From Rhodothermus marinus DSM 4252 (GTDB lineage: Bacteria; Bacteroidota; Rhodothermia; Rhodothermales; Rhodothermaceae), in NCBI RefSeq assembly GCF_000024845.1, contig NC_013501.1:1622874-1654873 (forward strand): a stretch of DNA of 32,000 nt. Reading direction: 5' to 3'. Of this stretch, positions 1-24,160 are shown piece by piece. How positions within the stretch are numbered: the first letter of the stretch is position 1; every line of letters begins with the position of its first letter. The position numbers were made by a program, and so were the translations under genes. The notes below the pieces were generated by a model that was given only the letters and a program-made list of their open reading frames with translations, ran no database searches and was not told the origin of the DNA.

Positions 1-775
1 GCACAGATAGCCGGTAGAGTGTTTCGTTGGTGAGATAAGGGCCGTCGGCCAGACCCGGAACGGGCGGCAGCGCCGTCCGAGAACCTGTCGCGATCAGCAC
101 GGCCCGGCCCGTGATCGTTTCGTCGCCCACCTGAATGGCGGTCGGACCGGCCAGCCGCGCCCGCCCTTCGCGAAAGACGATCTGCCGGCCGTCGATGAGA
201 TCCAGGTACTTGTGCCGACGCAGTTCGTCGGTCAGCGCCTGCACCTGGCCGATTACAGCGCCGAAATCCTCCACCCGACTGGTGGAACGGATCCCCGCAA
301 ACGGATGATGCGCCGCCCGGTGATGCGCTTCGGCCGCCCGGATAAGCGCCTTCGAGGGCACGCAGCCGACGTTCACACACGTGCCGCCCGGCGGCAGGCC
401 GTCGTTGACGATCAAGCTCCGGAAGCCCAGCTCCCGCGCCCGCAACGCCGCCGCAAACGCCGCCGAGCCACCGCCGATGATCAGCAGATCGTAATCGATC
501 CGATCCGAACCGCTCCTGGTCGGCGTCTCGCTGCCGATTTCACGCACCACCTCCCACGCCTCCAGTCGGTATCCGTGGCCGGCCTGCGCGACGGCCTTCC
601 TGAGCGCTTCGGCATCGACAGCGTCGCCTTCCCAGGTTACTACAGCCCGGCCGCTCTGCCAGCCGGGCACCTGCGCGCGCACCACACCGGGCACCCGCAT
701 GAGCGCCTGTTCGATCGTGCGCGCGCAATGCGTGCAGGTCATTCCCCCGATACGCAGTTCCAGGATCTTTTTCAT
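1..775 (-). CDS. merA: Mercuric reductase MerA, N-terminal ~258 codons (gene continues past the left window edge)
   Basis: Hand translation of the reverse strand from the ATG at 775-773 gives three motifs. MKKILELRIGGMTCTHCARTIEQAL is the NmerA HMA domain (GMTCxxC). DYDLLIIGGGSAAFAAA is the FAD dinucleotide fold. GGTCVNVGCVPSK is the redox-active CxxxxC of class I pyridine nucleotide-disulfide oxidoreductases. It is missing from the ORF track only because it has no stop inside the window. The start overlaps the upstream stop (ATGA). Confidence 0.9.
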   Translation of the reverse strand, partial: MKKILELRIGGMTCTHCARTIEQALMRVPGVVRAQVPGWQSGRAVVTWEGDAVDAEALRKAVAQAGHGYRLEAWEVVREIGSETPTRSGSDRIDYDLLIIGGGSAAFAAALRARELGFRSLIVNDGLPPGGTCVNVGCVPSKALIRAAEAHHRAAHHPFAGIRSTSRVEDFGAVIGQVQALTDELRRHKYLDLIDGRQIVFREGRARLAGPTAIQVGDETITGRAVLIATGSRTALPPVPGLADGPYLTNETLYRLSV

Positions 776-1401
776 GATGTTGCTCCGGTTCTGTTTTTTA
801 GCGCGGCCCCGAAGCCGGTCTCACGAATGGCCTCAATAAGCTGCATTACCGACACTTTCGTAGTATCAAAGCGCACGCGCGCCTCCGGCGGCTCCAACGT
901 TACCTCGGCCGCCTGTACGCCTTCGACGCGCCGCAGCGCATAGACCACGGCCTGACTGCACGCCTCGCACGTCATGCCCTGCACTTCCAGCACCACCTCC
1001 TGCACCGGCTCGCTACGGACCTGCTGCGCCATCGCGGTCGGATGCGTGCGTCCGATCAGCGACGGCGTCGCCAGCAGCCCCAACACCAGCACCGTACCCA
1101 GTCCCAGCAGCAACCGGCGCGTCTTCGGGCGCAAGCCGGTCTCGCAGTCGCAATCAGGCTCCGGCAAGCGCCGCGCTTCCCGGTACCAGGCCAGCCCCAG
1201 GGCTCCCAGCGCCAGCGCCACGAAAAACGGCCGGTAGGGCTCCAGCGCCGAGAGCCGGCTCACCCAGGCGCCCCCCACCCCGACGGCCACAGCCGCCAGC
1301 GGGCCGACGCAACAGACCGAAGCCAGCACGCCCGCACCTATGGCCGCCAGCAGGCTCGAACGGGCAATTCGGTCCGGCTTTTCCGTCCTGTTCGTGCTCA
1401 T
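772..1401 (-). CDS. merT: Mercury transporter, MerT-like membrane domain fused to a C-terminal MerP-like HMA domain (209 aa)
   Basis: This is the frame of track ORF 772..1908, but the real start is the internal ATG at 1401-1399 (MSTNRTEKPD...). TM1 carries a vicinal Cys pair (SVCCVGPL), followed by a second Cys pair (PDCDCE) and a further TM segment. The C-terminus has GMTCEACSQAV, a heavy-metal-associated fold. ATGA overlaps occur at both ends, with the regulator upstream and merA downstream. Confidence 0.8.
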   Translation of the reverse strand: MSTNRTEKPDRIARSSLLAAIGAGVLASVCCVGPLAAVAVGVGGAWVSRLSALEPYRPFFVALALGALGLAWYREARRLPEPDCDCETGLRPKTRRLLLGLGTVLVLGLLATPSLIGRTHPTAMAQQVRSEPVQEVVLEVQGMTCEACSQAVVYALRRVEGVQAAEVTLEPPEARVRFDTTKVSVMQLIEAIRETGFGAALKNRTGATS

Positions 1402-1811
1402 TGCGCTTCCTCCTTCAGGTTGAGGTTTAACTGAATGCGGTCCAGCTCCAGCTCGTCGAACAGTCGCACAAGCAGCCGGGCAAACGGATTGGCCGTACAG
1501 ACCCGGTAGTAGATCGTCTGCGCCTCCCGCCGCGCTTCGACGAGTGCCTTTTCGCGCAGGATCTTCAGGTGCCGCGAGACGGCCGGCTGCGAGATCTCGA
1601 AAATGTCGGCCAGGTCGCACACGCACAGCTCCCCGGCCCGGTGCAACACGTAGAGCATGCGCAGCCGCGTCTCGTTGCCGGCCGCCTGCATGAAGGCCGC
1701 CAGTGCCACCAGGTGATCGTTCCCGAGCGCCTCTTCGCGCAATCGGGCCAGCTTCTCCGGATCGACGGCCACCCGCACGCACGTGCGGTCGGTCACCTCG
1801 CGCCGCTTCAT
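1398..1811 (-). CDS. ArsR/SmtB-family metalloregulator heading the mer operon (137 aa)
   Basis: The ArsR-type winged HTH is readable: ETRLRMLYVLHRAGELCVCDLADIFEISQPAVSRHLKILREKALV. It is the first gene of the co-directional, overlapping mer cluster. Confidence 0.85.
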   Translation of the reverse strand: MKRREVTDRTCVRVAVDPEKLARLREEALGNDHLVALAAFMQAAGNETRLRMLYVLHRAGELCVCDLADIFEISQPAVSRHLKILREKALVEARREAQTIYYRVCTANPFARLLVRLFDELELDRIQLNLNLKEEAQ

Positions 1812-1860
1812 AATTATTAACAGATTGGTTAATTAACTTTATTGTTATATAACAGACAAA
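1812..1860. promoter_or_regulatory. AT-rich control region of the mer operon with stacked palindromes (candidate ArsR-type operator plus promoter)
   Basis: It lies immediately upstream of the regulator start (1811). There is a perfect 10-bp palindrome GTTAATTAAC (1828-1837) and a perfect 12-bp palindrome TGTTATATAACA (1843-1854). There is also an inverted repeat ATTAAC-N6-GTTAAT (1816-1833). It is the only strongly AT-rich stretch in this part of the window. Confidence 0.45.
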
Positions 1861-2023
1861 ACACACATTGTCAAGATCCCTGAGCCCAGATTTGAAAGAG
1901 GGCGCCACGCGCGGACGGGAAAAGCCTCAGCTTGTGCATGAACGGACAGGCTTTGCAGAAGCAGCGTCGTCCCGCTGGTGCAGAGACCTGAGCAACACGG
2001 TGCGCTTCGAACAGAAATCCAAC

Positions 2024-2048
2024 AAAAAACCCCGGCACGAAGCCGGGG
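2024..2048 (-). terminator. Rho-independent terminator downstream of tRNA-Thr
   Basis: On the minus strand the sequence is CCCCGGC-TTCGT-GCCGGGG followed by TTTTTT (complement of A-run 2024-2029). It starts 7 nt after the tRNA 3' end. Confidence 0.6.
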
Positions 2049-2054
2049 TTTGAG

Positions 2055-2127
2055 AGCCAACGGCCGGACTCGAACCGGCGACCTGCTCATTACGAGTGAG
2101 CCGCTCTACCAGCTGAGCTACGTTGGC
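2055..2127 (-). tRNA. tRNA-Thr (anticodon CGT), 73 nt, CCA not encoded
   Basis: Folded by hand into a cloverleaf. The acceptor is GCCAACG/CGTTGGC and the D arm is GCTC-AGCTGGTA-GAGC. The anticodon arm is GCTCA-CTCGTAA-TGAGC, giving anticodon CGT. The T arm is GCCGG-TTCGAGT-CCGGC and the discriminator is T. Confidence 0.9.
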
Positions 2128-2230
2128 TCGTAAGGCGCAAGTAAGTTAGCGAGCCATTTCACGCCGCGTCAAGCCGCAGGATCCCGCCCGACGGCCGCCG
2201 ACGCCAACCTTAACATTTCTTCAAGCAGCC

Positions 2231-3004
2231 CTACTGCTGTACGGTTTTATCCAGCGGCAATCCGAGCTGCTCGTAGAGTTGGCGACGCCCCTGTTTGTCG
2301 GCTTCCAGCACGCGCCGGGCCAGCCGGAACACCCGTGCGGCATGTTCGCGAGGGACGACCACCACGCCATCACCGTCGGCCACGATCACGTCGCCGGGAC
2401 GCACCAGCGCCCCGCCGATCTCGACGGGCCGGTTGACCGATTCCAGTTCGTTGCGTCCCGGACGAATGCCGCGTCCGCGCTGCAGCGGGTCCATGTAGAG
2501 CGGGATCTGCTGCTTGATGATCTCATCGGTGTCGCGCACGCTTCCGGTAGTCACAATGCCACGGGCGCCCCGGGCATACCAGAGCAGCGAGTTGTAGGAA
2601 CCGATCGAGCCCGTATCGCCGTTGCCGCTGGCGTCGATGACGATCACCGTGCCGGGCCGGATCAGGTCCACAAACGGCTCGGGCGACAGTTCGTTGTACC
2701 AGCGGCCGCTCCAGGCGTCGAATGCTTCCTCGGGGATCGGATTCGGGACGATTTTGTTGGTCGGCACGTAGCGAACTGTCAGCGCAATCCCGCAGAAACG
2801 GTGTCGAAAATCCTCCAGATCGCGCCAGAGCGGCTGAATGCGTGGATCGACCACCCCCACATTGCGCAGGCCGACCACGTCCATGGCATCGACCACGTCG
2901 GCCACGCGCAAACCTTCACAGAGCGCAAGCAGCGTCGAGTCGCTGACGGTCGTATCTTGTGGGGCCGCAAACAACAGGCTCAGCGTAAGCAGCAGGACGT
3001 TCAT
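2231..3004 (-). CDS. RraA / 4-hydroxy-4-methyl-2-oxoglutarate aldolase-family protein with an N-terminal signal-peptide-like segment (257 aa)
   Basis: The RraA-fold signature region is present: GDTGSIGSYNSLLWYARGARGIVTTGSVRDTDEI and GDVIVADGDGVVVVP. The N-terminus MNVLLLTLSLLFAAPQD is hydrophobic and leader-like. Confidence 0.7.
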   Translation of the reverse strand: MNVLLLTLSLLFAAPQDTTVSDSTLLALCEGLRVADVVDAMDVVGLRNVGVVDPRIQPLWRDLEDFRHRFCGIALTVRYVPTNKIVPNPIPEEAFDAWSGRWYNELSPEPFVDLIRPGTVIVIDASGNGDTGSIGSYNSLLWYARGARGIVTTGSVRDTDEIIKQQIPLYMDPLQRGRGIRPGRNELESVNRPVEIGGALVRPGDVIVADGDGVVVVPREHAARVFRLARRVLEADKQGRRQLYEQLGLPLDKTVQQ

Positions 3005-3051
3005 GGCGTTTCGTTTACAGGTTACAATTTATCAGACAATACATAAAAACG

Positions 3052-4596
3052 ATGGATAAAACAAGTCCCTTTGCGATCCATCCGGCGCTGGCCGAGCTGT
3101 GTGCGCACCTGGCGCGCATGATGGACCTCCGGGCGGCGGCCGCCCTGCTGGAGTGGGATCAGGAGACCTACATGCCCGCCGGAGCGACCGCCGTGCGGGC
3201 CGAGCAGCTCGGCACGTTGCATCGCCTGGCCCACGAGTGGTTCATCGCGGAGCGGACGGGCGAGTTGCTGGAAGCGGCCGCGGCCTCCGTGCGTGAGCTT
3301 CCTCCGGAGCACCTGGCCGTACGGCTCGTCGAGGTCGTGCGCGAGGATTACGACAAAGCGCGACGGGTGCCGCCCGAGCTGGTGGCCGCGCTGGCCCGCA
3401 CCGAGTCGGAGGCCCGCGAGGCCTGGAAGCAGGCCCGCCAGGAGAACCATTACGCGGTGTTTGCGCCCTATCTGGAGCGGCTGCTGGCGCTCAACCGGGA
3501 AAAGGCCGAGGCGCTGGGGTACGAAAAACATCCCTACGACGCCCTGCTGGACCAGTACGAGCCGGGCATGACCACCGAGGCGGTGCGCGTCCTTTTCGAG
3601 CAGTTGCGCGCCGAGCTGGTCCCGCTCGTTCGGGCGCTTGCCGACCAACCCCAACCCGAAGCGGCCTTCCTGCACCGCTACGTCGAGCCCGAGCGCCAGT
3701 GGGCCCTGAACCGCATGGTGCTGGAAGCCATTGGCTTCGATCTGCAGCGCGGGCGGCTGGACGCCTCGGTCCACCCGTTCAGCACCGGGATTGCCATTGC
3801 GGACGTGCGGCTGACCACCCGCATCGATCCGCACGACTTCGCCAGCGGACTGTTCGCCACGCTGCACGAGGCCGGACACGGACTCTACGAGCAGGGGATC
3901 GATCCCGTACTTGAGCGCACGCCGCTGGCCGACGGCGCTTCGCTGGGCCTGCACGAATCACAATCCCGGCTCTGGGAAAACCTGATCGGCCGGAGTCGGC
4001 CCTTCTGGGAGTATTTCTATCCCCGGCTTCGGGAGTATTTTCCGGGCGTGCTCGACGACGTGCCGCTGGATGCCTTCTACCGGGCCATCAACCGCGTGCA
4101 GCCCTCGCTCATCCGCGTCGAGGCCGACGAGGTCACCTACAACCTGCACATCCTGCTTCGCTTCGAACTGGAAGTCGCCCTGATCGAGGGGAATCTTTCG
4201 GTGCAGGATCTTCCGGCCGCCTGGGACGAGGGCATGCAACGCTATCTCGGGCTACGGCCGGAGACGCTTCGCGAAGGGGTGTTGCAGGATATTCACTGGT
4301 CGCAGGGAGCTTTCGGGTACTTTCCGACCTATACTTTAGGGAACCTGATGTCGGCCCAGCTCTGGCGGGCCATCGAGCAGACCGTCCCGGACGTAGCAGC
4401 CTTCATGCAACAGGGAGATTTTCGCCCGATTCTTACCTGGTTGCGCACGCAAATCCACCGGCACGGCCGCGCCTGGAAGGCGCCGGTCCTGCTTGAGCAG
4501 GCCACGGGCCATCCGCTCGATGCGGAACCCTGGCTGACGTATATACGCAAAAAGTACCAGGCGCTGTATCCCGCAGCGTCCGTATCTTTGTCGTAG
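3052..4596 (+). CDS. M32 metallocarboxypeptidase (Taq-type thermostable carboxypeptidase 1), 514 aa
   Basis: The zinc site HEAGHGLYE (HExxH) is present, together with the family-specific [10 protein letters not shown] and [14 protein letters not shown] motifs. Confidence 0.9.
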
Positions 4597-4622
4597 TTCA
4601 ATCACCAGCCGAGAGAGCCTCT

Positions 4623-4952
4623 ATGGAGATCCCGGAAATCGCCTTTGAGTACTACAGCGAAAATCACGAGCTGACCGACGCGCTGAAGGCCAAGGTAGAG
4701 CAGCGCATTCAGAAGCTGGCGAAAAAGCACCACGACATTACGGGCGTGTCGGTCGCCATCCAGCGCGTCGAGCATACCCATACGCCCCATGCTTACCGGG
4801 CGCGGGTGGTCGTCTACCACAAGCCTGAAAACGTGGTGGCTACCGAGGTTGCCCCGACCGTGGAGGAGTCGCTGCTCCGCGCGCTGGATTCGGTCGAACG
4901 TCAGGTGCGCGAGCAGCGGCGTAAGCTGCGCGAGCAATGGAAGCGCCCGTGA
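4623..4952 (+). CDS. Ribosome hibernation / sigma-54 modulation protein family (short HPF/RaiA-like), 109 aa
   Basis: Its size, basic C-terminus and layout (LTDALKAKVEQRIQKLAKKHHDITGVSVAI...) are typical of the family. A strong terminator follows. Confidence 0.7.
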   Translation: MEIPEIAFEYYSENHELTDALKAKVEQRIQKLAKKHHDITGVSVAIQRVEHTHTPHAYRARVVVYHKPENVVATEVAPTVEESLLRALDSVERQVREQRRKLREQWKRP

Positions 4953-15854: not shown

Positions 15855-16133
15855 TTAATGGCTCTGTTGCTGTGCCAGCTGTTGCCGGAGCATTTCTTCC
15901 TCCTCCTCGGTCGTCGGCCGCACGATCGAGACGGCCCGCACCTGGAGTTTTTCACGAAGCACCGGATCGCGCACCTCCTCGGCCGTAACGAACGCCTCTT
16001 CGCCGGGCTTGAGCCGAATGGTGCGCGTGCTCATGGGAATTTCAACCGGCACGTCGTTCGTGTTCTTGATGATCATGCCGCGACGTTTACGACTGGCCAT
16101 GCTGCCCTCCCCGGATGGTTTGTTTGCGGGCAC
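15855..16133 (-). CDS. Small hypothetical protein (92 aa; alternative start 16100)
   Basis: The ORF lies 16 nt upstream of the glycosyltransferase on the same strand and has an acidic C-terminus (TTEEEEEMLRQQL). No recognisable motif. Confidence 0.4.
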   Translation of the reverse strand: MPANKPSGEGSMASRKRRGMIIKNTNDVPVEIPMSTRTIRLKPGEEAFVTAEEVRDPVLREKLQVRAVSIVRPTTEEEEEMLRQQLAQQQSH

Positions 16134-16201
16134 ATGCGTGGGGTATGTTCTTTAAAGTATACAATATTTCCGACGCCGATGCGAACCGTTCCGGCCGCCC
16201 C

Positions 16202-16915
16202 ATGACTGTTTTACCGGATTCTTACAGGCAGACGCTTCGCCGTCTGGGAAGGGCCCTGCGGGCGCTGGTCTATCCATGGCACTGTCTGCACTGCGGCGCA
16301 CGGGCCACACACCCGACGCTTCCGCTCTGCACAGACTGTCTGGCCGCGCTTCGTCGCGTGCCGCCCGGCGAGCCGCTTCGTCGCCTGCACCGGTTGCCGG
16401 AGGCCATCGGCTGCTTCCGGGCCGCCTACAGCCTGTGGTACGAAACCCCGGAGGGGCCCTTTCGCCCGCTGCACCATGCCCTGAAGTACGGCAACCGGCC
16501 GGTCTATGCGCAGCGGCTGGGACGGCTGCTGGGCGAAACATTCCGCGACGAGCTGCAGACGATCGACGTGGTCGTGCCCGTCCCGCTGCACCGCCGCCGT
16601 TTTCTGGAACGCGGCTACAACCAGAGCGCCTGGCTGGCCCGGGGCGTCGGCGAGGTGCTGGGACGCCCGGTAGCTCCGGAACTGCTGGTGCGCGTGCGCG
16701 CCACGCGGAGCCAGACCCACCTGGGTCGCGACGCACGTCGCGCCAACGTGGCCCGCGCCTTTGCGGCGCCTTACCCGGAGCGTGTGGCCGGACGTCACGT
16801 GCTGCTGGTGGACGATCTGCTCACCACCGGCGCCACGGCCGCCTGGGCCGCCCAGGCCCTGCACGAAGCCCACGCTTCTGGCGTCACGCTGCTCACGCTG
16901 GGCCTGGCGGCATGA
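16202..16915 (+). CDS. comF: ComF-family phosphoribosyltransferase-like protein (237 aa from ATG 16202)
   Basis: The N-terminal 4-Cys zinc ribbon is CLHCG...CTDC. Also present are LKYGNRP, VPVPLHRRRFLERGYNQS, and the PRT motif VLLVDDLLTTGATA. Confidence 0.8.
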   Translation: MTVLPDSYRQTLRRLGRALRALVYPWHCLHCGARATHPTLPLCTDCLAALRRVPPGEPLRRLHRLPEAIGCFRAAYSLWYETPEGPFRPLHHALKYGNRPVYAQRLGRLLGETFRDELQTIDVVVPVPLHRRRFLERGYNQSAWLARGVGEVLGRPVAPELLVRVRATRSQTHLGRDARRANVARAFAAPYPERVAGRHVLLVDDLLTTGATAAWAAQALHEAHASGVTLLTLGLAA

Positions 16916-17154
16916 AGCAATTGCAAATTGCCGGACCTAATGTGTGATTGCAGATTCACCGACGAATGACGGCACACCCCATGTACTGGACATGGCTCGC
17001 GGGCACAAAAAGCGGACACAGTAGGCCGTCTCTGTGTGCTGGAAATGCCGTCAGCTGTCCGATAGGGGTGCCCCAAGGTGTGCGCTCGTGCTTTCAGCCC
17101 GGGGTATAAAGCGTGGTCATGGGATACCACGCACATGCACCATGATGCCCGTGA

Positions 17155-17316
17155 TCAAGCAACCCACTCGCCACACAACACCTCCGTTTGACTCAAAACC
17201 AGCTCCACAGCCTGTTCCTGTTTGTCGGGCGGATAGCCATATTTGCGCAGGATACGCTTGACGAGTACGCGCAACTGGGCGCGGGCGCTCTCACGTCTAT
17301 TCCAATCTACTGATAG
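17155..17316 (-). pseudogene. hsdR: 3'-terminal remnant (~53 codons plus stop) of a type I restriction enzyme R subunit gene (hsdR)
   Basis: Hand translation gives (GL)[52 protein letters not shown]. This matches the highly conserved C-terminal tail of HsdR proteins as I remember it (..[26 protein letters not shown]...VL.QAE.L). The frame is closed by a stop at 17350-17352 and has no start codon. Its 5' end overlaps the Abi_C stop. Confidence 0.65.
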
Positions 17317-17806
17317 TCCGAAGATTGGGCTCCCTGCCGTCGTAGGCGCTCAGGATGAGCGCGATGACCGAGTCGGCCGATAGAAGGTACACCCGCGTGT
17401 ACCGGTTCGAGATCGCGTCAAGAAACCCATCCCTACCATGCGCGACGCTGCCGTCCTGATTGCGATACTCGTTCAATGCCTCAGCCAATCTGTTGTGCGC
17501 CGAGATCACCCTACCCAGAGGCCCCACACCCCGCTGATGGCGCAGCCCCAGGGCGTCCAATACGCGGGCAAGCAGCTCCGTTGTCGTCGGCGTGGAGGAA
17601 GCCAGTCCCTCTGCACCCAGCTCGTTGAGCACCGTCCAGCAGACGCACTCCAGGAAGGACTTGATCAACTCGATGACGCTGCTCCCTTCCCCCTCCCAGG
17701 CGCGGACGAGCTCCCGATAGTGTTGTTGAAGATTGGCGGCATCCGGCCAGCGCTCGACAGCGGCACGAAAGGCCGGGGCGATGTCGTCGAGACGGTTGCC
17801 ACTCAT
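17297..17806 (-). CDS. Abi_C (abortive-infection C-terminal domain) family protein, 169 aa from ATG at 17806
   Basis: The C-terminal half reads [23 protein letters not shown]...[21 protein letters not shown]. This fits the Abi_C pattern (RN..G.aHG followed by helices). The start lies 2 nt after the DUF4411 stop. Confidence 0.6.
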
Positions 17807-17808
17807 GT

Positions 17809-18291
17809 CTATCTCTCCAGAACGAATCGAGCTCGCTCGTGCCGCAACATTTCGAAGGGAGTCATCACCTTGATGCCCAGCCCCACACACACGTTCGGAA
17901 TCTTGACCTTATTCCGCGTGTCGGCAGGCTTTTCATGCGTTACAACGACAAACCCACCGGCCAGCGCATGGGCGATAAGCCAGTAGTCCGCCACCTGGAA
18001 AAAAGCGCTCTTGGCAGCCGGGGTGTATTCGTTGCTGTTCACCCATTCGCTCACCGCACCCATCGCTTCGAGAACAGTCGGATCTGGTTTCAAGAAGAAT
18101 CCATCCCGCTGAGACGACACCCAAACCGCCAGTTCATCGTCGCCCGCCTCGAGTTCGTCCTTGACCTTCTCAATGCTGAACACCTTGCCGGCCTGGTTGC
18201 TTTCGACCAGCCAGTCCCAGAAGGCTGGGCAGAAGTCCATGCCGTAATGCAGGTTCTTGGCCGCTATGAAGACGTTGGGCAAGTATCTCAT
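17809..18291 (-). CDS. DUF4411 PIN-like protein (predicted nuclease/toxin component), 160 aa
   Basis: Family-typical strings are LPNVFIAAKNLHYGMDFCPAFWDWL, VADYWLIAHALAGGFVVVTHE and KVKIPNVCVGLGIKVMTPFEMLR. The start overlaps the upstream stop (ATGA). Confidence 0.8.
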   Translation of the reverse strand: MRYLPNVFIAAKNLHYGMDFCPAFWDWLVESNQAGKVFSIEKVKDELEAGDDELAVWVSSQRDGFFLKPDPTVLEAMGAVSEWVNSNEYTPAAKSAFFQVADYWLIAHALAGGFVVVTHEKPADTRNKVKIPNVCVGLGIKVMTPFEMLRHERARFVLER

Positions 18292-19439
18292 GCCGGAATC
18301 TCCAGACGTTGCGCCAGCTCATAAAAGGTCCGGCTTTTTCGCACGCCGAGAAGGCGAAACGCCTCGGTAAAGGGCGTTTGTCCCTCCAACGTGCTCACGA
18401 TCACCGCCCTGGCGAATCGCTTGCCCACATGAGCGCCCAGGGTGTTGTAAAAATCTCCGCCCTTTCCTCCGGGCGAAAGCTGCTTCAACCGCTGCAACTC
18501 TTGTTGCCATGCGCTGTCCAGTGTTTCCCGATCGATCCACCCGGCATCGAACAGACGGCGCAGGATCACCAGGGTGCTGACCTTGAAGCGCCGCGCCAGC
18601 CGCTCCAGCGTCTCGGGTAAAGGTTCGCCTGCCACCAGGTTCGCTCGCACGGCTTCAAGCGGAGCAAGGAATTCCGCCGCCACCGCATTGCACCAGCGCT
18701 CGGTCCGCTCGTCGGGAAGAACGCGCGCGTCGCTATCGCTTACGCCAGATTGCCCCAACCAGAGGTGCGCCAGTTCATGGGCCAGGGTGAACATCTGTCC
18801 CGCCTTGCTGTCCCTGCCATTGATGAACACCAGCGGGGCCAGGTCGTCGGCCAGCGCGAATCCGCGAAACTCGGAGACATCGAGCGGACGGTGGGTATTG
18901 CTGCCGACAATGCCGCTGACCATCACCAGCACCCCGGCATCTTCGGCCAAGCCGATGAACTGTCGCAGCGCTTCAGTCCATGTCGTCATTCGGGAACGGG
19001 CTTCTATATCGAACCCGAGCTGTTCGCGCATCCGAGCGGCCACCTCCGCCGGGGCATCCTGAAGCGTCGCCGAGCCCACAAAGGCAACCGGCGGTTCGCC
19101 ATATAGCCGGGCAAACTCCCGGTACCAGGCCTGCCGCTGCTGACAGATGTAGATCGTTTCCAGCAGGTCGGCGCTGGGGGAGCTATGGCGTGCCTTCGAC
19201 GTGGTGCGAAAATCGGGGATCGGCAATACCTCTTCCGGCGGTTCGGCCAGAAAGAAATAACCGATAGGAGTGTGGGTGGCGCGGGCGAAGTCCTCGAGCT
19301 GCCTGAGCGTGGGTTGTCCCCGCCCTTCTAACCAGTCTTCGAGCTTCTTGAAACGACGAGACAACTCCTCCGGCATGCGGCCAGAGCGCCGCATGGCCCA
19401 ATACAAAAGATCGGGTTTAACAGGCACTCGCAAGGTCAT
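18288..19439 (-). CDS. ImmA/IrrE-family (COG2856/M78) zinc metallopeptidase with an N-terminal XRE-like HTH, 383 aa
   Basis: The HTH-like segment is PTLRQLEDFARATHTPIGYFFL. The zinc site is FTLAHELAHLWLG (HExxH), with a downstream ERWCNAVAAEFLAP. A GGAGG Shine-Dalgarno lies 7 nt upstream of the ATG. Confidence 0.8.
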   Translation of the reverse strand: MTLRVPVKPDLLYWAMRRSGRMPEELSRRFKKLEDWLEGRGQPTLRQLEDFARATHTPIGYFFLAEPPEEVLPIPDFRTTSKARHSSPSADLLETIYICQQRQAWYREFARLYGEPPVAFVGSATLQDAPAEVAARMREQLGFDIEARSRMTTWTEALRQFIGLAEDAGVLVMVSGIVGSNTHRPLDVSEFRGFALADDLAPLVFINGRDSKAGQMFTLAHELAHLWLGQSGVSDSDARVLPDERTERWCNAVAAEFLAPLEAVRANLVAGEPLPETLERLARRFKVSTLVILRRLFDAGWIDRETLDSAWQQELQRLKQLSPGGKGGDFYNTLGAHVGKRFARAVIVSTLEGQTPFTEAFRLLGVRKSRTFYELAQRLEIPA

Positions 19440-19504
19440 ACCGCATCCTCCAGAATCTTCTCTTCATCTGGCATGGATCTCCAATGGATGCCATATGTAT
19501 CTGA

Positions 19505-21022
19505 TCAATATTGCCATCTGAACAACTCATACTCCTCAGGAGCGATGGCTGGCTGCATGGATTTCTTCTTTTCCTCATCCACTATGGGTTTATTTAGCAC
19601 ACCTTTGAGCTCATCACTTTTGATCCAATCATTTTCCCATAAGGATTTTTTCTCCTTTCCCTCGGCAATAAGACAAAGCCGTTCAGACCATTCATCCTGG
19701 AATCCAAGCGGAATAGCAATTCGCTGTAGCCATACTTCCATATATCCAGTATTAGGAAGCCTTCTAAATTTTCCCACTATTTTATTAAAAATTTCTTTCT
19801 TATCACTTTCGGATTTCAAAAACCCTAATAAGCGACTGATGATTGCAGCACAGACTGGATATGTCCGCGGATTACCGTAAGCTATGTCCACAACAATACT
19901 GATAAGAACATGCGGATTTGAGCAGGTCTTCGTTTTATCCAGTTTCTTTCGAAACTCAGCGAGTCCTCGTAGCAAGCTCCCACTATTCGGATAGCAACGA
20001 GCATGGTCATGCAAAATTAATAAATGCCTTACCAGGTCATTATCCTCCTGGACTCTGAACAACCACGCTAGTTTATCTTCTTTAATGGAAGATTGAATGA
20101 TACTATCACTGATAACTGTTTTTTCGGAGTTTAATTTCAATCCCAAATTGCTCAATACCTCTGTAAGAATCTTCAGTATTTCTTCAGCATCATACTTACT
20201 TCTTACAAATATCCTATAATCGTCACGATAACGCAGGATCTTATAGTTTTTATCCTGAAGGGTAGTCTTCGCTAGCTTTTCACTAAGGCATAAATCCGCA
20301 TAGCCAAGAACCATCTCCGCTATGAAGTCCATCAGTATCGATCCTTGCGGAATCCCATTGGTCTGTCCATATCGCATATTTTGAATGCATTTGTCTATTC
20401 TATTTCCAATTAGAGACAAGTCTTTTCTTTCCTTCTTAGCTTTCTCTTTACTGTGAAGCGCCCAAGCGATTGAGTGGGTATAGATCTGACCGTAACAATC
20501 GTTGATGTCCGTATGAGCTAAAACCTCGAACTCCAAGGCCAACTCTATTGAGCGCTGCTCGATTTCTTGCCACCACACGAGTATCTGCTCCTCTTTGTCC
20601 TTAGACCTTGAGGTGGACTCTACCGGAATACTCACGCAGTCAACGACTGAGTCGTTCTTGAATTGTAAAAAGCGTTCCTGAATAAACTTCCAATTTTCCG
20701 GATGCGTAATCGCGTTTACCAAGTCAACATAGAGTACGGGGTGTATTACCTCAAACGGTCTCCACGCATGCCTTCCGTCTTTATTGGATAATAGCAAATA
20801 GTTAACTCCTTCGAGGTGTGCGGGCCGTATTCCCTGCTCGCATAGATTGTCAAGTTCTTCGTCGTGCAGGTAATTGTCCACCTCGCTTAGAACAGACTCG
20901 AAAGTGAAATAGAGTGGAAGATCAATGTCGCAGTAACTCTCCGGCTTCAGGAAGAATGCCCGGGCTTCATCTGCGCTCATATCAAGAACCAGGCGTGCAC
21001 TACTATTATTTCTCTCGCTCAT
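19505..21022 (-). CDS. Stand-alone reverse transcriptase (Abi/UG-like, non-retron, non-intron) with a ~200-aa helical C-terminal extension, 505 aa
   Basis: RT motifs are read in order. Motif 1/2 is NKDGRHAWRPFEVIHP, motif A is HTDINDCYGQIYTHSI, and motif B is GIPQGSILMDFIAEM. Motif C is ILRYRDDYRIFV, with the catalytic DD encoded at 20219-20224. Motif D/E is LGLKLNSEKT. The gene is far more AT-rich than anything else in the window. Confidence 0.85.
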   Translation of the reverse strand: MSERNNSSARLVLDMSADEARAFFLKPESYCDIDLPLYFTFESVLSEVDNYLHDEELDNLCEQGIRPAHLEGVNYLLLSNKDGRHAWRPFEVIHPVLYVDLVNAITHPENWKFIQERFLQFKNDSVVDCVSIPVESTSRSKDKEEQILVWWQEIEQRSIELALEFEVLAHTDINDCYGQIYTHSIAWALHSKEKAKKERKDLSLIGNRIDKCIQNMRYGQTNGIPQGSILMDFIAEMVLGYADLCLSEKLAKTTLQDKNYKILRYRDDYRIFVRSKYDAEEILKILTEVLSNLGLKLNSEKTVISDSIIQSSIKEDKLAWLFRVQEDNDLVRHLLILHDHARCYPNSGSLLRGLAEFRKKLDKTKTCSNPHVLISIVVDIAYGNPRTYPVCAAIISRLLGFLKSESDKKEIFNKIVGKFRRLPNTGYMEVWLQRIAIPLGFQDEWSERLCLIAEGKEKKSLWENDWIKSDELKGVLNKPIVDEEKKKSMQPAIAPEEYELFRWQY

Positions 21023-21092
21023 CGCACACCTTCTGGGATACCTTTTCTACGTTTGACTGGTTCAATGTAATCTATAATTCCGATCAGTTTCT

Positions 21093-21719
21093 TCACCGAA
21101 ACCGCCGCAAATCCACCTGTTGCATGCAGGCGGCCGCTTCGTCGGCGTCGTTGGTGGCTACCACCACCAGTCGGCCTTTCGCCCGGGCTTCTTCAAGCAA
21201 TGCTTCAACCAGCCGGCGGCCGGCCTCGTCCAGGTTCGAGCGCGGCTCGTCCAGGAGCCAGAGCGGCGGATCGGCCAGCAACGCGGCGGCCAGCCGGAGC
21301 CGCTGGCGCATGCCCGAGGAGAAAATCGCCACGGGCTCGTCGGCAAACGCCCGGAGCTGCACCCGTTCCAGCCAGCTTTCCACACGCCGGCGTCCGTCAG
21401 AAAGGCCCCGGGCCCGGGCGATAAACGTCAGGTTCTCCCGCGCGGTAAAGCCGTCGTAGAGCTGCAGGTAGGGCGCAGCCAGCCCCACGTAGAAGGGACG
21501 ATCGGTGGGCTCGACCTGGCGACCGTTGACCTGCAACCGCACCTCGCCCTCCGAGGGACGCAGCACGCCCGCCAGCATGCGCAAAAGCGTCGACTTGCCC
21601 GAGCCGTTCGGGCCCGTCACGGCCAGCGTCTCGCCGGCCGCGATCGTGAACGAAAGCCCCGCAAACAGGCGCCGGTAACCGAAGCGCTTGCCGAGCGCGA
21701 TCACTTCCAGTCGGTCCAT
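21093..21719 (-). CDS. ABC transporter ATP-binding protein (CcmA-like size, 208 aa from ATG 21719; no permease gene adjacent)
   Basis: Walker A is GPNGSGKST, the signature is SSGMRQRL, and Walker B is LWLLDEP. Confidence 0.8.
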   Translation of the reverse strand: MDRLEVIALGKRFGYRRLFAGLSFTIAAGETLAVTGPNGSGKSTLLRMLAGVLRPSEGEVRLQVNGRQVEPTDRPFYVGLAAPYLQLYDGFTARENLTFIARARGLSDGRRRVESWLERVQLRAFADEPVAIFSSGMRQRLRLAAALLADPPLWLLDEPRSNLDEAGRRLVEALLEEARAKGRLVVVATNDADEAAACMQQVDLRRFR

Positions 21720-21802
21720 GCCTGCAAGATAAGCAACCGGACCGCTCCGAAACGCATCGCTGCTCCCGCGGTATATCCTTTCGTTCAAGTTTTACTTCAG
21801 CC

Positions 21803-24160
21803 GTGGCGGAGACGACGCACCTGTACGACGACGTCGCGCTGTTCGGCCGGGATCCGGCGCCGGGGCTGCTGGACGTACAGCCGCTGCTGGACGGCGACGC
21901 CGACACGCCGGCCCGCGTGCGCCTTTACTGGCGCAGCGCGGACGGCACGCTACGCGTCGAAGAGCAGCCGTTCTATCCGTTCTTCCTGCTGGCCGACATC
22001 CGGTTGCTCCGGGGCTACCCGCGGCGGCGTTTTCGCTTTCGCCCGCTGGCAGGGAACGAGCACTTCCGCTATCTGGTCGTCTTCGAAAGCTGGACCGCCT
22101 ACCGCGAAGCGCTCCGTCACATCGAGCAGGCGGCCGCCGGTGCCGAGCGCCCGCCCGTCTATCAGATCAACGCCCCGGCCCAGCAGTACCTGATGCAGTC
22201 GGGCCGCACCTGCTTCAAAGGCATGACGCTCGACGACCTGCACCGCCTCCAGCTCGACATCGAGGTCTACACCGAATCGGGTTTCCCGAACGCGGAGCGT
22301 CCCGAAGATCAGATCGTGCTCATCGCGTTGCACGACAACCGCGGCTGGCATCGCGTGCTGGACATACGCGATGCCGGCTCCGAAGCGGCCCTGCTGCGTC
22401 AGTTTGTGGACGTGCTGCGCGAGCGGGACCCCGATGTGCTGGAAGGCTACAACCTGCTGGCTTTCGACCTGCCCTATCTGCAGCGGCGTTGCCAGCGCTA
22501 TGGTATTCCCCTGCAACTGGGCCGCGACGGCAGCGAGCTCCGCACGTTTCCGGCCAGCATTCGCTTTGCCGAGCGCACGATCGACTACACGGCCTTCGAG
22601 ATCGCCGGCCGGCACGTGATCGACGTCTACTTTCAGGTGCTGGCCTTCGACGTGTTCAAGCGGGACCTGCCCGACTACACGCTGAAGACGGTCGCCCGCT
22701 ACTTCGGCCTTTCGACGCGCGAGCGCACCTACATCGCCGGCACCGAGCTTTCCCGCACCTGGACCGAAGATCCCGATCGCGTGCGCGCTTACGTGCTCGA
22801 CGACGCCATCGAAACGGAGCGGCTGGCCCGTATGCTCTCGGGCTCGGCCTTCTACCTGACGCAAATGGTGCCCATGCCCTACGGACAGGTAGCGCGTACG
22901 GGACCCGCCGCCAAGATCGAAGCGCTCATGGTGCGCGAGTACCTGCGGCGTCGCCACAGCATCCCCTGCCCCCAATGGGGCAGCCAGGCGCTGGGCGGCT
23001 ACACGGACGTCTTCGTGACCGGCGTGGTCGGCCCCATCGTTTACGCCGACGTCGAAAGCCTCTACCCGTCCATCATGCTCACCTACGGCATCCAGCCGCG
23101 CACCGATCGGCTGGGGCTGTTTCAGCAGCTGTTGCGTCGGCTGACCGAGCTGCGTCTGGAAACCAAGCGCCGGATGCGTGAAGCCGAGTCCGAAGCGCTG
23201 CGCCGTGAACTCGACGCCCGGCAGAACTCCTACAAGATCCTGATCAATTCCTTCTACGGCATGCTGGGCTTTTCGCTGGCGGCGTTCAACGACTTCGAGG
23301 CGGCCGATCGCGTGGCGGCCACCGGTCAGGAGGTGTTGCGCCGGCTCATCCAGGCCATCCAGCAGGCCGGCGGACAGGTCGTCGAGGTGGACACCGACGG
23401 CGTGCTCTTCATGCCCCCGCCGGACGTCCGGGACGAAGCGGCCGAACGCGCCTTCGTCGAGCAGCTCGGCGAGGCCCTTCCATCCGGCATTCGCGTGAGC
23501 TACGAGGGCCGTTTCAAAAAAATGCTTTCCTACAAAAAGAAAAACTACGCGCTGCTGGGCTACGACGGCAGCCTGAAGTTCAAAGGGTCCTCGCTGATTT
23601 CCCGCTCCGTCGAGCGCTTCGGCCGACAGTTCGTGCGCGAGGCCATTGCGCTGCTGCTGGAGGAAGACGTTCAGGGACTGCACGAACTCTACCTGCGCTA
23701 CCGCGCCCGCATCCTGCAGCACGACTGGGAAAGCGTCCACGACTTCGCCCGCACCGAGACGCTGAAAGACACGCTCGAAAACTACCTGGCCGATGTGGCG
23801 GCCGGGCGGCGTCCCCGCGCGGCCGCCTACGAACTGGCCCTTCGCCTGCGCGAGGCCGGCCGTCCCGTGCGCAAAGGGGATCGGATCACCTACTACATCA
23901 CGGGCACGCACCCCAACGTGGCCGCCTACGAAAACTGCCGCCTGGCCGAGGAATGGGATCCGGCCAATCCGGACGAAAACGCGGCGTACTACCTGCGACG
24001 TCTGGACGAATTTGCCCGCAAGTTCGAGCCTTTCTTCACCCCGGCCGACTTCCGACGCATCTTCTCCCCTGACGACCTGTTCGGCTTCTCGGCCGAGGGC
24101 ATTCGCCCGATCCGCCGGGTACGCGCGCCTGAAGAAGTGTTTTCATCCACCCCGTTTTGA
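21803..24160 (+). CDS. polB: Family B DNA polymerase (Pol II-like), 785 aa, GTG start
   Basis: The exonuclease motifs are Exo I LQLDIEVY, Exo II YNLLAFDLPYL and Exo III YVLDDAIETERL. The polymerase motifs are A (DVESLYPSIM), B (KILINSFYGMLG) and C (VEVDTDGV). Confidence 0.9.
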   Translation: MAETTHLYDDVALFGRDPAPGLLDVQPLLDGDADTPARVRLYWRSADGTLRVEEQPFYPFFLLADIRLLRGYPRRRFRFRPLAGNEHFRYLVVFESWTAYREALRHIEQAAAGAERPPVYQINAPAQQYLMQSGRTCFKGMTLDDLHRLQLDIEVYTESGFPNAERPEDQIVLIALHDNRGWHRVLDIRDAGSEAALLRQFVDVLRERDPDVLEGYNLLAFDLPYLQRRCQRYGIPLQLGRDGSELRTFPASIRFAERTIDYTAFEIAGRHVIDVYFQVLAFDVFKRDLPDYTLKTVARYFGLSTRERTYIAGTELSRTWTEDPDRVRAYVLDDAIETERLARMLSGSAFYLTQMVPMPYGQVARTGPAAKIEALMVREYLRRRHSIPCPQWGSQALGGYTDVFVTGVVGPIVYADVESLYPSIMLTYGIQPRTDRLGLFQQLLRRLTELRLETKRRMREAESEALRRELDARQNSYKILINSFYGMLGFSLAAFNDFEAADRVAATGQEVLRRLIQAIQQAGGQVVEVDTDGVLFMPPPDVRDEAAERAFVEQLGEALPSGIRVSYEGRFKKMLSYKKKNYALLGYDGSLKFKGSSLISRSVERFGRQFVREAIALLLEEDVQGLHELYLRYRARILQHDWESVHDFARTETLKDTLENYLADVAAGRRPRAAAYELALRLREAGRPVRKGDRITYYITGTHPNVAAYENCRLAEEWDPANPDENAAYYLRRLDEFARKFEPFFTPADFRRIFSPDDLFGFSAEGIRPIRRVRAPEEVFSSTPF

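Follow-up and report, generated by a model that had tools for sequence, protein, structure and literature searches.

Four open reading frames that follow one another on the minus strand in Rhodothermus marinus DSM 4252, at positions 16916-21092 of the window (the whole 32,000-nucleotide stretch analysed here), encode, 5' to 3', a reverse transcriptase (RT), an ImmA peptidase, a DUF4411 protein and an Abi_C protein. The question raised by this locus is whether the four genes constitute one composite anti-phage system, with the RT as an infection-triggered module, the peptidase as a sensor and the remaining two proteins as effectors, as was hypothesised in the preliminary description, or independent systems stacked in one hotspot, the alternative considered there. 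The latter is supported by the data presented below: the block is very probably a decayed type I restriction-modification (R-M) island with independent stacked cassettes, and not a composite system.

Gene content and flanks

The coordinates of the four genes and the spacings between them (65 nt between RT and ImmA, a 4-nt ATGA overlap between ImmA and DUF4411, and 2 nt between DUF4411 and Abi_C) are as originally reported. The features of the locus, all but the last on the minus strand, are the following:

21093..21788, minus strand: ccmA-like ABC transporter ATPase, housekeeping flank (NCBIfam TIGR01189 ccmA, 6.9e-43)
21023..21092, minus strand: AT-rich leader of 70 nt from the ccmA stop to the RT start (GC 40%)
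19505..21022, minus strand: Abi-P2 family reverse-transcriptase-like polymerase, 505 aa, apparently intact (PADLOC, PDB 7r08 and Pfam matches)
19440..19504, minus strand: RT-ImmA spacer, 65 nt (comparison with true hsdS ends)
18288..19439, minus strand: ImmA/IrrE (M78) peptidase with an N-terminal Xre-like HTH, 383 aa, apparently intact (Pfam, PADLOC, AlphaFold2)
17809..18291, minus strand: DUF4411 PIN-like nuclease (putative toxin), 160 aa, with a 6-nt in-frame deletion (Pfam DUF4411, 2.9e-53)
17297..17806, minus strand: truncated Abi_C-domain gene, 169 aa (Pfam Abi_C, 2e-08; blastn junction at 17310)
17155..17310, minus strand: hsdR relic, last ~51 codons and stop (tblastn, HsdR residues 1016-1068)
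16115..16915, plus strand: comF/gntX-like phosphoribosyltransferase, housekeeping flank (NCBIfam GntX 3.4e-26, ComF 6.2e-23)

The stops of the two flanking genes had been described as convergent; towards the block itself only comF (stop at 16915) converges, and the ccmA-like gene (stop at 21093) runs in the same direction as the block, which starts 70 nt past its stop. This gene, 208 aa long in other assemblies (window 21093-21719), is a flank syntenic across R. marinus strains and R. profundi. The GC content is 42% in the RT gene, 56-62% in the other three genes of the block and about 65% in the flanks. The domain calls RVT_1 (8.7e-12), Peptidase_M78 (9.1e-17), DUF4411 and Abi_C were reproduced with Pfam, whereas the HTH of ImmA had no Pfam match and was recognised in an AlphaFold2 model (mean pLDDT 73.5) matching the Xre-family antitoxin 3omt with a probability of 0.98. 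All four genes had been considered intact; the RT and ImmA genes do look so, but Abi_C is truncated and DUF4411 carries the 6-nt deletion.

Same-site islands and deletions in DSM 4252

An empty comF/ABC junction, which the preliminary description proposed to look for in relatives, is present in R. profundi, where comF abuts ccmA directly. In three sister genomes the same comF/ccmA site is occupied by an intact island of the order hsdM-hsdS-(variable cargo)-ImmA-DUF4411-Abi_C(384 aa)-hsdR, in agreement with the earlier view of the block as part of what is left of a type I R-M locus. In two of them, R. marinus L173 and L179, which share both flanks with the window, the cargo is PDC-S06 (7e-281) and Kiwa (KwaA 2.4e-95, KwaB 1.1e-132), respectively; in the third, L003, it consists of unk435 and an Abi-P2 RT. 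Since the site is empty in R. profundi and the cargo varies among R. marinus strains, the block is accessory and does not belong to the core genome. Homology of the window to L173 and L179 stops at 21069 and restarts at 19473, no homology being found between 21069 and 19474, the RT region; it begins at 19473 also in L093 and L094, and at 19475 in L088.

The full island of L003 matches the window (blastn) at 90% over 21028-17310 and at 90.5% over 17310-16817, and two deletions are apparent from this comparison. The first one, placed by the correspondence of window 21198-21019 to L003 1-191 and of window 21028-17310 to L003 4650-8375, removed hsdM-hsdS-unk435; its junction lies at about 21019-21028, inside the leader, and the sequences at its endpoints form an imperfect repeat of ~20 nt. 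The second is a clean deletion of 3,702 bp (L003 8376-12077), which took the C-terminus of Abi_C and all but ~51 codons of hsdR. The hsdR tail of ~50 codons noticed earlier behind the block was recovered by tblastn: window 17316-17158 gives a 96% match to the final 53 codons of an HsdR, of which about 51 fall beyond the 17310 junction, in the hsdR part. As had also been noticed, neither HsdM nor HsdS has a match anywhere in the 32-kb window. The dN/dS values between lineages are low for all four genes (0.02-0.31), and the damaged genes were therefore under constraint until recently.

The ancestral island, inserted between ccmA and comF, very probably had the order hsdM-hsdS-(cargo slot)-ImmA-DUF4411-Abi_C(384 aa)-hsdR, with the genes between hsdS and hsdR as embedded defence cassettes that are carried in the hsd operon and would act independently. 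Its decay in DSM 4252 comprised the loss of hsdM-hsdS-unk435, of the Abi_C C-terminus with most of hsdR, and of an Asp in DUF4411. Type I R-M operons with embedded defence genes have been described (10.1101/2024.01.29.577857; PMC11411939). As in such cases, namely PrrC/EcoprrI, TgvAB in Vibrio VPI-2 and those of the 'guilt-by-embedding' study of Payne et al. 2024, the cargo is located between hsdS and hsdR, is co-directional, often translationally coupled and strain-variable, and the slot holds known (Kiwa, Abi-P2) as well as candidate (PDC-S06) systems. Unlike in these cases, the R-M scaffold has been deleted in the window, leaving orphan cargo, and three cassettes are stacked in series, with hsdS 3'-end relics at their boundaries.

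The three cassettes

Judging by its sequence, the RT is a full-length member of the Abi-P2 family, carried as a strain-specific low-GC cassette. A search with PADLOC models identified it as AbiP2 (1.3e-201, residues 8-503 on profile positions 3-485 of 489), and it matches the Abi-P2 structure PDB 7r08 (9.5e-89) over residues 11-501, a span that takes in the RT-like domain as well as the helical one at the C-terminus. The family alignment shows no variation in the catalytic motif YRDD (residues 265-268) or in Tyr38, which aligns with the Abi-P2 priming residue Tyr61, and all residues invariant across 31 family members are kept in the window RT. The single-gene cassette layout is also that of Abi-P2, and the GC content is below that of the host, as in the P2 prophage locus; the characterised Abi-P2 originates from P2 prophages, with no R-M link described (PMC8632793). 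In contrast to Abi-P2 of the P2 prophage hotspot, the window RT belongs to a type I R-M island on the chromosome of a thermophile from the Rhodothermaceae; its clade very often sits directly 3' of hsdS, and its activity is a prediction. DNA synthesis by Abi-P2 needs no template (PMC9508834), and this cassette would encode a protein-primed, template-independent DNA polymerase sufficient alone in abortive infection. A Shine-Dalgarno-like AGAAGG is located 7 nt 5' of the RT ATG and 6 nt of the native upstream sequence are left; a scan of the region 5' of the gene with an E. coli-type sigma-70 consensus, which may not suit Rhodothermus, gave no promoter-like site exceeding chance expectation. Transcription may reach the RT from the side of ccmA, and of the defence genes in the block probably no other still works.

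The second cassette would be a toxin-antitoxin-like module, with the HTH-Zn-peptidase ImmA as its putative antitoxin or regulator and the PIN-like nuclease DUF4411 as its putative toxin. ImmA, with its HELAH motif at residues 221-225, matches the PADLOC models RmrA (3e-15) and CapP (3.4e-14), has homologues of similar length (381-384 aa) that number more than 8000, and keeps all residues invariant across 20 homologues; it survives, possibly as a regulator. The pair resembles the three-component HTH-DUF955(ImmA/COG2856) + DUF4411.1 modules predicted to be toxin-antitoxin-like (Matelska et al. 2017, PMC5499597) in that a gene for a fused HTH-M78 peptidase precedes that of DUF4411, which it overlaps by 4 nt, and in that the pairing is near-obligate (76 of the 80 best-scoring loci). 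RosmerTA, a system with a Zn-peptidase antitoxin, defends against phage (10.1101/2022.05.11.491447); the window peptidase resembles its RmrA component, but DUF4411 has no PADLOC RmrT match, and the pair would therefore not be called Rosmer. No experimental test of the exact ImmA-DUF4411 pair was found in the literature searched. Unlike in the known modules, the toxin copy in the window lacks an invariant residue: the 6-nt deletion at about 18277-18282 changes YLLDANVFI to YLPNVFI, and the Asp lost, presumably the first acidic residue of the PIN active site, is kept in each of 73 metagenomic homologues and 5 close relatives (78/78). Because of this one-residue loss DUF4411 is probably inactive in DSM 4252.

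The third cassette would encode a 384-aa Abi_C-domain protein, of which the window copy consists of codons 1-165 followed by four out-of-frame hsdR codons and a stop. The C-terminal 219 aa present in the 384-aa orthologues of L003, L173 and L179 are absent; the closer homologues, mostly of 360-390 aa, align to it with residues 1-165 only. The Abi_C domain (PF14355) lies at residues 77-152 and is kept despite the truncation. It is N-terminal in the ~384-aa protein of this family, unlike in proteins with a C-terminal Abi_C domain, and a short motif in the C-terminal part of the family's protein is similar to the C-terminus of HsdR. Like DUF4411, the truncated protein is probably non-functional.

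Co-occurrence of the cassettes and alternative readings

The samples of RT and ImmA loci were best-scoring matches, many on short metagenomic contigs, and the counts given here are therefore approximate. ImmA-DUF4411 adjoins the RT in 3 of 84 loci with RT homologues, and among the highly varied ORFs downstream of RT homologues, 102 of which were scanned, Peptidase_M78 was found in two loci only; the close relatives of the RT, at 79% and 65% identity, lie beside different genes. Conversely, in the 80 best-scoring ImmA loci the RT is never present, Abi_C occurs in two and Hsd genes in at least 37. Each cassette is also found alone between hsdS and hsdR: the RT in L041, L043 and L044, ImmA-DUF4411 in L135 and L155, and Abi_C, between the hsdS tail and the hsdR start, in L181.

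These observations bear directly on the composite reading, in which untemplated ssDNA made by the RT upon infection would activate the ImmA/IrrE-type peptidase, which would in turn release DUF4411, possibly with Abi_C, as effectors. The genes run in one direction with little space between them, ssDNA is reported to activate CapP and IrrE/PprI, and the ImmA model matches CapP (7t5t), IrrE (3dti) and PprI, including the PprI-ssDNA complex 8sln, which would suit a response to the DNA that Abi-P2 makes without a template. Moreover, the RT is followed by ImmA-DUF4411 in three lineages (the window with L003, L088 and L083), and some selective benefit of the combination is conceivable because of this recurrence. 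The three junctions are nevertheless different (65 nt with an hsdS relic; 345 nt; 131 nt, AT-rich and without a relic), Kiwa or PDC-S06 takes the RT position beside the same ImmA-DUF4411-Abi_C in sister strains, the GC content of the RT gene is about 20 points off that of its neighbours, and both proposed effectors are damaged in DSM 4252. With the rarity of the association added, such a system is highly improbable; the pattern is one of pure hotspot stacking, which the preliminary description had itself named as an outcome against its hypothesis. Only the RT and the peptidase still look intact and the cassettes are three separate, swappable units, so no new four-gene system is present.

PrrC is held latent by EcoprrI, and the RT could by analogy be tied to type I R-M instead of ImmA-DUF4411 and fire once the Hsd complex is put out of action by anti-restriction proteins of a phage, being an orphan in DSM 4252. 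In 26 of 74 loci the gene directly 5' of the RT is an hsdS, recognised by its Methylase_S domain; in 19 of the 80 genome-scan loci the RT start shares 1 or 4 nt with the stop of the gene before it (hsdS in at least 14 of these); HsdM, HsdS or HsdR is encoded in at least 39 of the 80 best-scoring RT loci; and PrrC has been cited as a gene that occurs almost only inside type I R-M loci (10.1101/2024.01.29.577857). However, about half of the RT loci show no Hsd genes, no R-M link is described for the P2 prophage Abi-P2, the DSM 4252 RT is apparently intact although hsdM, hsdS and hsdR have been lost, and the many unrelated types of cargo in the same slot fit passive embedding; a guard of this kind thus seems improbable. 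It is unlikely, too, that all four genes are decaying and none contributes to defence: the two large deletions, the active-site deletion, the loss of all but 6 nt of the native RT upstream region and the negative promoter scan would agree with a dead remnant, but the conserved invariant residues of both RT and ImmA, the Shine-Dalgarno-like sequence, possible read-through from ccmA and the uncertain fit of the E. coli-type consensus argue against it. The decayed island with independent cassettes thus remains the preferred reading.

It is also worth mentioning that hsdS 3'-end relics flank the cassettes, a kind of boundary mark of which no description was found in the consulted literature on R-M-embedded defence genes. 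The RT-ImmA spacer is composed of 31 nt of RT-cassette flank and a 34-nt relic (19440-19473) encoding PDEEKILEDAV*, to be compared with the true hsdS ends (...LRDTLLPKLISGELRVPDVEKILEDAV*) in L179, L173, L003 and L091; the stop of the relic overlaps the ImmA ATG. In the leader, too, a degenerate sequence is similar to the 3' tail of hsdS.

The block in DSM 4252 and the same site in other genomes

The four-gene block at 16916-21092, between ccmA and comF, is very probably a decayed type I R-M island holding independent cassettes, in which an Abi-P2 polymerase would be the sole plausibly active defence gene remaining, the ImmA peptidase would survive, and DUF4411 and Abi_C would be inactive. Gene anatomy, deletions, cassette swaps and the absence of conserved co-occurrence are observed; protein activities and expression are throughout predicted. 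The genes of the block and its two flanking genes are as follows:

19505-21022, minus strand, reverse transcriptase (RT), 505 aa, Pfam RVT_1 8.7e-12
18288-19439, minus strand, ImmA-like protein, 383 aa, Pfam Peptidase_M78 9.1e-17
17809-18291, minus strand, DUF4411 protein, 160 aa, Pfam DUF4411 2.9e-53
17297-17806, minus strand, Abi_C protein, 169 aa, Pfam Abi_C 2e-08
ends 16915, plus strand, comF/gntX-like flank gene
ends 21093, minus strand, ccmA-like ABC ATPase flank gene

The ORF listing and Pfam agree with the preliminary description as to the four same-strand ORFs, their coordinates and domains, and their spacings, which from RT to Abi_C are 65 nt, a 4-nt overlap and 2 nt. The hsdR tail that it placed in the block was recovered with tblastn: the last 53 residues (1016-1068) of an intact HsdR are matched at window 17316-17158 with 96% identity, and about 51 of these 53 codons form the hsdR side of a deletion junction. 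Neither HsdM nor HsdS is matched by tblastn anywhere in the 32-kb window, again as described, and the complete set of hsdM, hsdS and hsdR that makes a type I R-M system is not found there. The block converges on comF and is read in the same direction as ccmA. The GC content is 42% in RT, 62% in ImmA, 56% in DUF4411 and 62% in Abi_C, and about 65% in the flanks.

A scan of 16700-21900 gave two promoter-like sites against 2.5 expected in shuffled sequence, with a consensus that may not suit Rhodothermus, and seven terminator-like sites against 5.2; as neither count is in excess of shuffled sequence, the scan says nothing on co-transcription. Scanned against Rfam and for tRNAs, the window gave a single find, a tRNA-Thr at 2054-2127, and neither an RT-associated ncRNA nor a tRNA integration site near the block. 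Outside the island, the gene Rmar_1412 (window 21803-24160, plus strand), for a family B DNA polymerase of 785 aa, adjoins ccmA and is kept in R. marinus and R. profundi.

Gene content between ccmA and comF in the window and at the same site in four other genomes
R. profundi (L180): interval empty; comF and ccmA abut, ends overlap
L003 (GCA_027059865.1; RT 88% identical): hsdM - hsdS - 435-aa unknown - RT - ImmA - DUF4411 - Abi_C (384 aa) - hsdR (1068 aa)
L173 (R. marinus, GCA_000565305.1): hsdM - hsdS - 759-aa AAA_13 protein - 79 aa - 276 aa - 44-aa ORF - ImmA - DUF4411 - Abi_C (384 aa) - hsdR
L179 (R. marinus, AP019797): hsdM - 684-aa ATPase - hsdS - KwaA - KwaB - 44-aa ORF - ImmA - DUF4411 - Abi_C (384 aa) - hsdR
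DSM 4252 (window): RT - ImmA - DUF4411 - Abi_C (169 aa) - hsdR relic

In L003, L173 and L179 hsdM, hsdS and hsdR are all intact at this site, and the flanks of L003 align to the ccmA and comF ends of the window. The empty comF/ABC junction that had been proposed as a check in relatives is present in R. profundi (L180 8587-9916), where the convergent comF and ccmA share about 23 nt at their 3' ends, indicating that the insertion of the R. marinus island took place precisely at the point where the ends of the two genes abut. An exact-protein look-up with the 208-aa ccmA of the window gave no match, and the empty site was located via the R. profundi PolB orthologue.

In PADLOC searches the cargo of L179 is Kiwa (KwaA 2.4e-95, KwaB 1.1e-132) and that of L173 is PDC-S06 (7e-281). 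When the window is compared with these two strains, the flank homology (95-97%) breaks at 21069 and restarts at 19473, 34 nt before ImmA begins; by this alignment the 1.6-kb RT segment is the strain-specific part and ImmA-DUF4411-Abi_C-hsdR the constant part. One hsdS-hsdR slot within a single species is thus filled with Abi-P2, Kiwa or PDC-S06 depending on the strain, which clearly illustrates the natural exchange of cassettes within a defence operon. Within the constant part, dS between the window and L003 is about three times as high in DUF4411 (0.59) as in the neighbouring ImmA and Abi_C (0.21 each), which suggests mosaic recombination inside this module.

Loss of genes and residues in DSM 4252

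Compared with L003, the block has undergone two deletions. The first removed the equivalent of L003 ~191-4650, i.e., hsdM, hsdS and the gene for the 435-aa protein; the RT start retains 6 nt of its native upstream sequence and now lies 70 nt past the ccmA stop. The second is a clean loss of 3,702 bp (L003 8376-12077); at its junction, window 17310, Abi_C codon 165 was joined out of frame to hsdR codon ~1018, with a stop 11 nt further on. The 169-aa Abi_C is therefore truncated: when 1.84 billion representative proteins were searched, its closer homologues were mostly 360-390 aa long and aligned with it over their first ~165 residues alone.

The full-length Abi_C of L003 (7879-9030, 384 aa) contains at residues 314-354 a 41-aa stretch, absent from the window copy, that resembles the HsdR C-terminal region (VDW-RRE...RV-LKR; BLASTP 7e-05, Pfam T1RH-like_C 8.7e-04). 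This hints at possible docking of the full-length protein onto the Hsd methylase core. Recombination between this motif and hsdR was considered as the origin of the second deletion and rejected, because the junction lies at Abi_C codon 165 and the microhomology there is at most 1-2 nt.

DUF4411 carries a 6-nt in-frame deletion at window 18277-18282 (codons 4-5), which changes M-R-Y-L-L-D-A-N-V-F-I to M-R-Y-L-P-N-V-F-I. The Asp of the motif Y-L-L-D-x-[ND]-V-F is kept in 73 of 73 metagenomic homologues, as well as in the five close relatives L003, L173, L179, L088 and L083, and is absent from the window copy. By its position this Asp is taken to be the leading acid of the PIN-like active site, so that the acidic site would be incomplete in the window. 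A conserved four-acid site has been described for DUF4411 (Matelska et al., PMC5499597). The same 160-aa protein is obtained from two independent read sets of the strain (L001 and L002), which excludes an assembly error. The putative DUF4411 toxin has thus probably been inactivated in DSM 4252 and its peptidase partner left intact.

The preliminary description counted four intact genes, which does not hold: two of the four, the truncated Abi_C and the shortened DUF4411, are damaged. RT and ImmA each keep every residue that is invariant in their own family alignment and are the sole intact-looking genes of the block. Since dN/dS between lineages is low (0.02-0.31) for all four genes, the damage appears to be recent. 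In the SRR018990 assembly of the same strain (L002 10001-11585) RT is called with 406 aa, followed by a 364-nt gap to ImmA, as against 505 aa in the window and in L001; the shorter form probably reflects an error of the reads or of the assembly in that older data set.

Identity of the cassettes and their association

RT (Rmar_1410, ACY48298) belongs to Abi-P2. It matches the PADLOC AbiP2 profile with 1.3e-201 (protein residues 8-503, profile positions 3-485 of 489) and, with phmmer, PDB 7r08 with 9.5e-89 (query residues 11-501, chain 34-540); this full-length match takes in the C-terminal helical domain. The active-site motif Y265 R266 D267 D268, which has the form of the Y(R/V)DD polymerase motif of UG/Abi class RTs (PMC8632793), is invariant in an alignment of 31 sequences, and so is Tyr38, aligned with Tyr61 of the crystallised Abi-P2, its priming tyrosine (PMC9508834). 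Abi-P2 is a trimeric polymerase that performs template-free DNA synthesis with a protein primer (PMC9508834), and in a P2 prophage locus it excludes phage T5 (PMC8632793). The same activity, with phage exclusion by the single gene, is predicted for RT.

The profile searches proposed for the other proteins gave RmrA for ImmA (3e-15 and 9.2e-13 with two PADLOC models, over residues 22-313), next to CapP (3.4e-14), and no PADLOC match at E<=0.01 for DUF4411. ImmA has the catalytic motif HELAH at 221-225, and its AlphaFold2 model (pLDDT 73.5) matches CapP, IrrE, PprI and an Xre-family antitoxin HTH. It has the Zn-peptidase and HTH of the RosmerTA antitoxin RmrA; an adjacent gene matching the RmrT toxin model is not found. 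RosmerTA comprises Zn-peptidase antitoxin systems able to defend against phage (10.1101/2022.05.11.491447), and by analogy the ImmA-DUF4411 pair would work alike, but it would not be called Rosmer because DUF4411 does not match the PADLOC toxin model. It does have the arrangement of a predicted three-component TA-like module, a fused HTH-DUF955 gene followed directly 3' by DUF4411 (PMC5499597), here with a 4-nt overlap.

The association of these genes was assessed from both sides, using the best 80 genomic loci with RT homologues of 48-56% identity plus the closest relatives (84 loci in all) and the best 80 metagenomic loci with ImmA homologues of 55-79% identity. At least 39 of the 80 RT loci have a recognisable HsdM, HsdS or HsdR; in 26 of 74 (about a third) the gene directly upstream of RT encodes a Methylase_S domain, and the stop of the upstream gene frequently overlaps the start of RT by 1 or 4 nt. 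The genes 3' of RT are highly varied, e.g., Schlafen/AlbA_2, AAA_21, RhuM, GmrSD and Fic, with Peptidase_M78 downstream in two scanned loci only. In the relative at 79% identity (L085) RT is followed by a 1179-aa unknown protein, and in that at 65% by a 212-aa protein and then hsdR. ImmA-DUF4411 stands beside RT in 3 of the 84 loci, L003, L088 (69% identity) and L083 (51% identity), with different RT-ImmA junctions of 65 nt, 345 nt and a 131-nt AT-rich spacer, respectively; Abi_C is present in the 88%-identical L003 alone. Among the 80 ImmA loci DUF4411 lies downstream in 76; none of the loci has RT, two have Abi_C, and Hsd genes are found in at least 37.

Each cassette also occurs alone in the slot: RT between hsdS and hsdR in three loci (L041, L043, L044), ImmA-DUF4411 in two (L135, L155), and a 383-aa Abi_C homologue in L181, with an hsdS tail upstream and the HsdR N-terminus downstream. 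For a distant Abi_C homologue (P0249) the context consists of 1.3-kb contigs only, whose ends are still informative. These solitary occurrences, together with the strain-wise swap of RT, Kiwa and PDC-S06, show three independent cassettes, stacked in the slot where a type I R-M operon carries its cargo.

The composite system of RT, sensor peptidase and effectors favoured in the preliminary description is not supported by these data, as conserved co-occurrence of RT, ImmA, DUF4411 and Abi_C across diverged homologues is not observed. In its narrower form, untemplated ssDNA from Abi-P2 would activate the IrrE/CapP-like peptidase and RT-ImmA-DUF4411 would be a coupled sensor-effector; the combination is present in three lineages, but with ImmA-DUF4411 in 3 of 84 RT loci, RT in none of 80 ImmA loci and the cassettes swapped between strains, such a circuit is highly improbable. 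The alternative offered there, independent systems stacked in a hotspot, is the one that both the counts and the swaps bear out. That RT guards the R-M complex in the manner of PrrC is improbable too. Complete loss of function of the block, which overlaps the reading as a decayed island with one plausibly active gene, is unlikely.

The result is mainly corrective: what looked like a new four-gene RT defence system resolves into three cassettes, known or predicted, that remain in a collapsed type I R-M island, with two of the four genes damaged. Defence genes embedded in type I R-M, BREX, DISARM and Hma have already been described (10.1101/2024.01.29.577857; PMC11411939); the members are new, but their kinds and the type of arrangement are known, and the novelty is low. 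Among the best 80 loci (L005-L084) the Abi-P2 clade lies directly 3' of hsdS in about a third, a placement that raises the question of functional coupling to restriction. The 435-aa protein between hsdS and RT in L003 (3163-4467; 48% GC, low like RT) and the 1179-aa protein between RT and hsdR in L085 (2291-5827) have no Pfam or PADLOC match and are candidates for embedded defence genes of unknown kind.

Relics of the hsdS 3' end

The true hsdS genes of these loci end with ...LRDTLLPKLISGELRVPDVEKILEDAV and a stop overlapping the ATG of the next gene. Relics of this tail (...GELRVPDVEKILEDAV and a stop, likewise overlapping the next ATG) recur before successive embedded cassettes. In the window, positions 19440-19473, the 34 nt that precede ImmA, encode PDEEKILEDAV followed by a stop. 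Further relics are located as follows:

L173 9920-10004, before ImmA, 27 codons
L179 8365-8404, before ImmA
L003 4608-4660, before RT
L085 2260-2295, after RT, before the unrelated 1179-aa gene
window 21020-21050, degenerate, directly after ccmA at the left edge of the island

Both endpoints of the deletion that removed hsdM and hsdS fall within such relics, and in 7 of 85 loci the score of a tail-like sequence within 400 nt downstream of RT exceeds the 99th percentile of control segments. This suggests, though it is not proof, that cassettes are loaded and removed by recombination at the conserved hsdS 3' end and stay translationally coupled in the process. Repeated relics may be the substrate by which cassettes are loaded, stacked and deleted in type I R-M operons; their presence at cassette boundaries and at one deletion's endpoints would offer a simple homologous-recombination route for the gain and loss of embedded cargo. 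It is also worth mentioning that a 25-aa tblastn match to RT upstream of ImmA in L094 was rejected as an RT remnant because by eye it is an hsdS-tail relic in another frame; a relic in that frame is included in the over-extended 540-aa RT ORF of L003.
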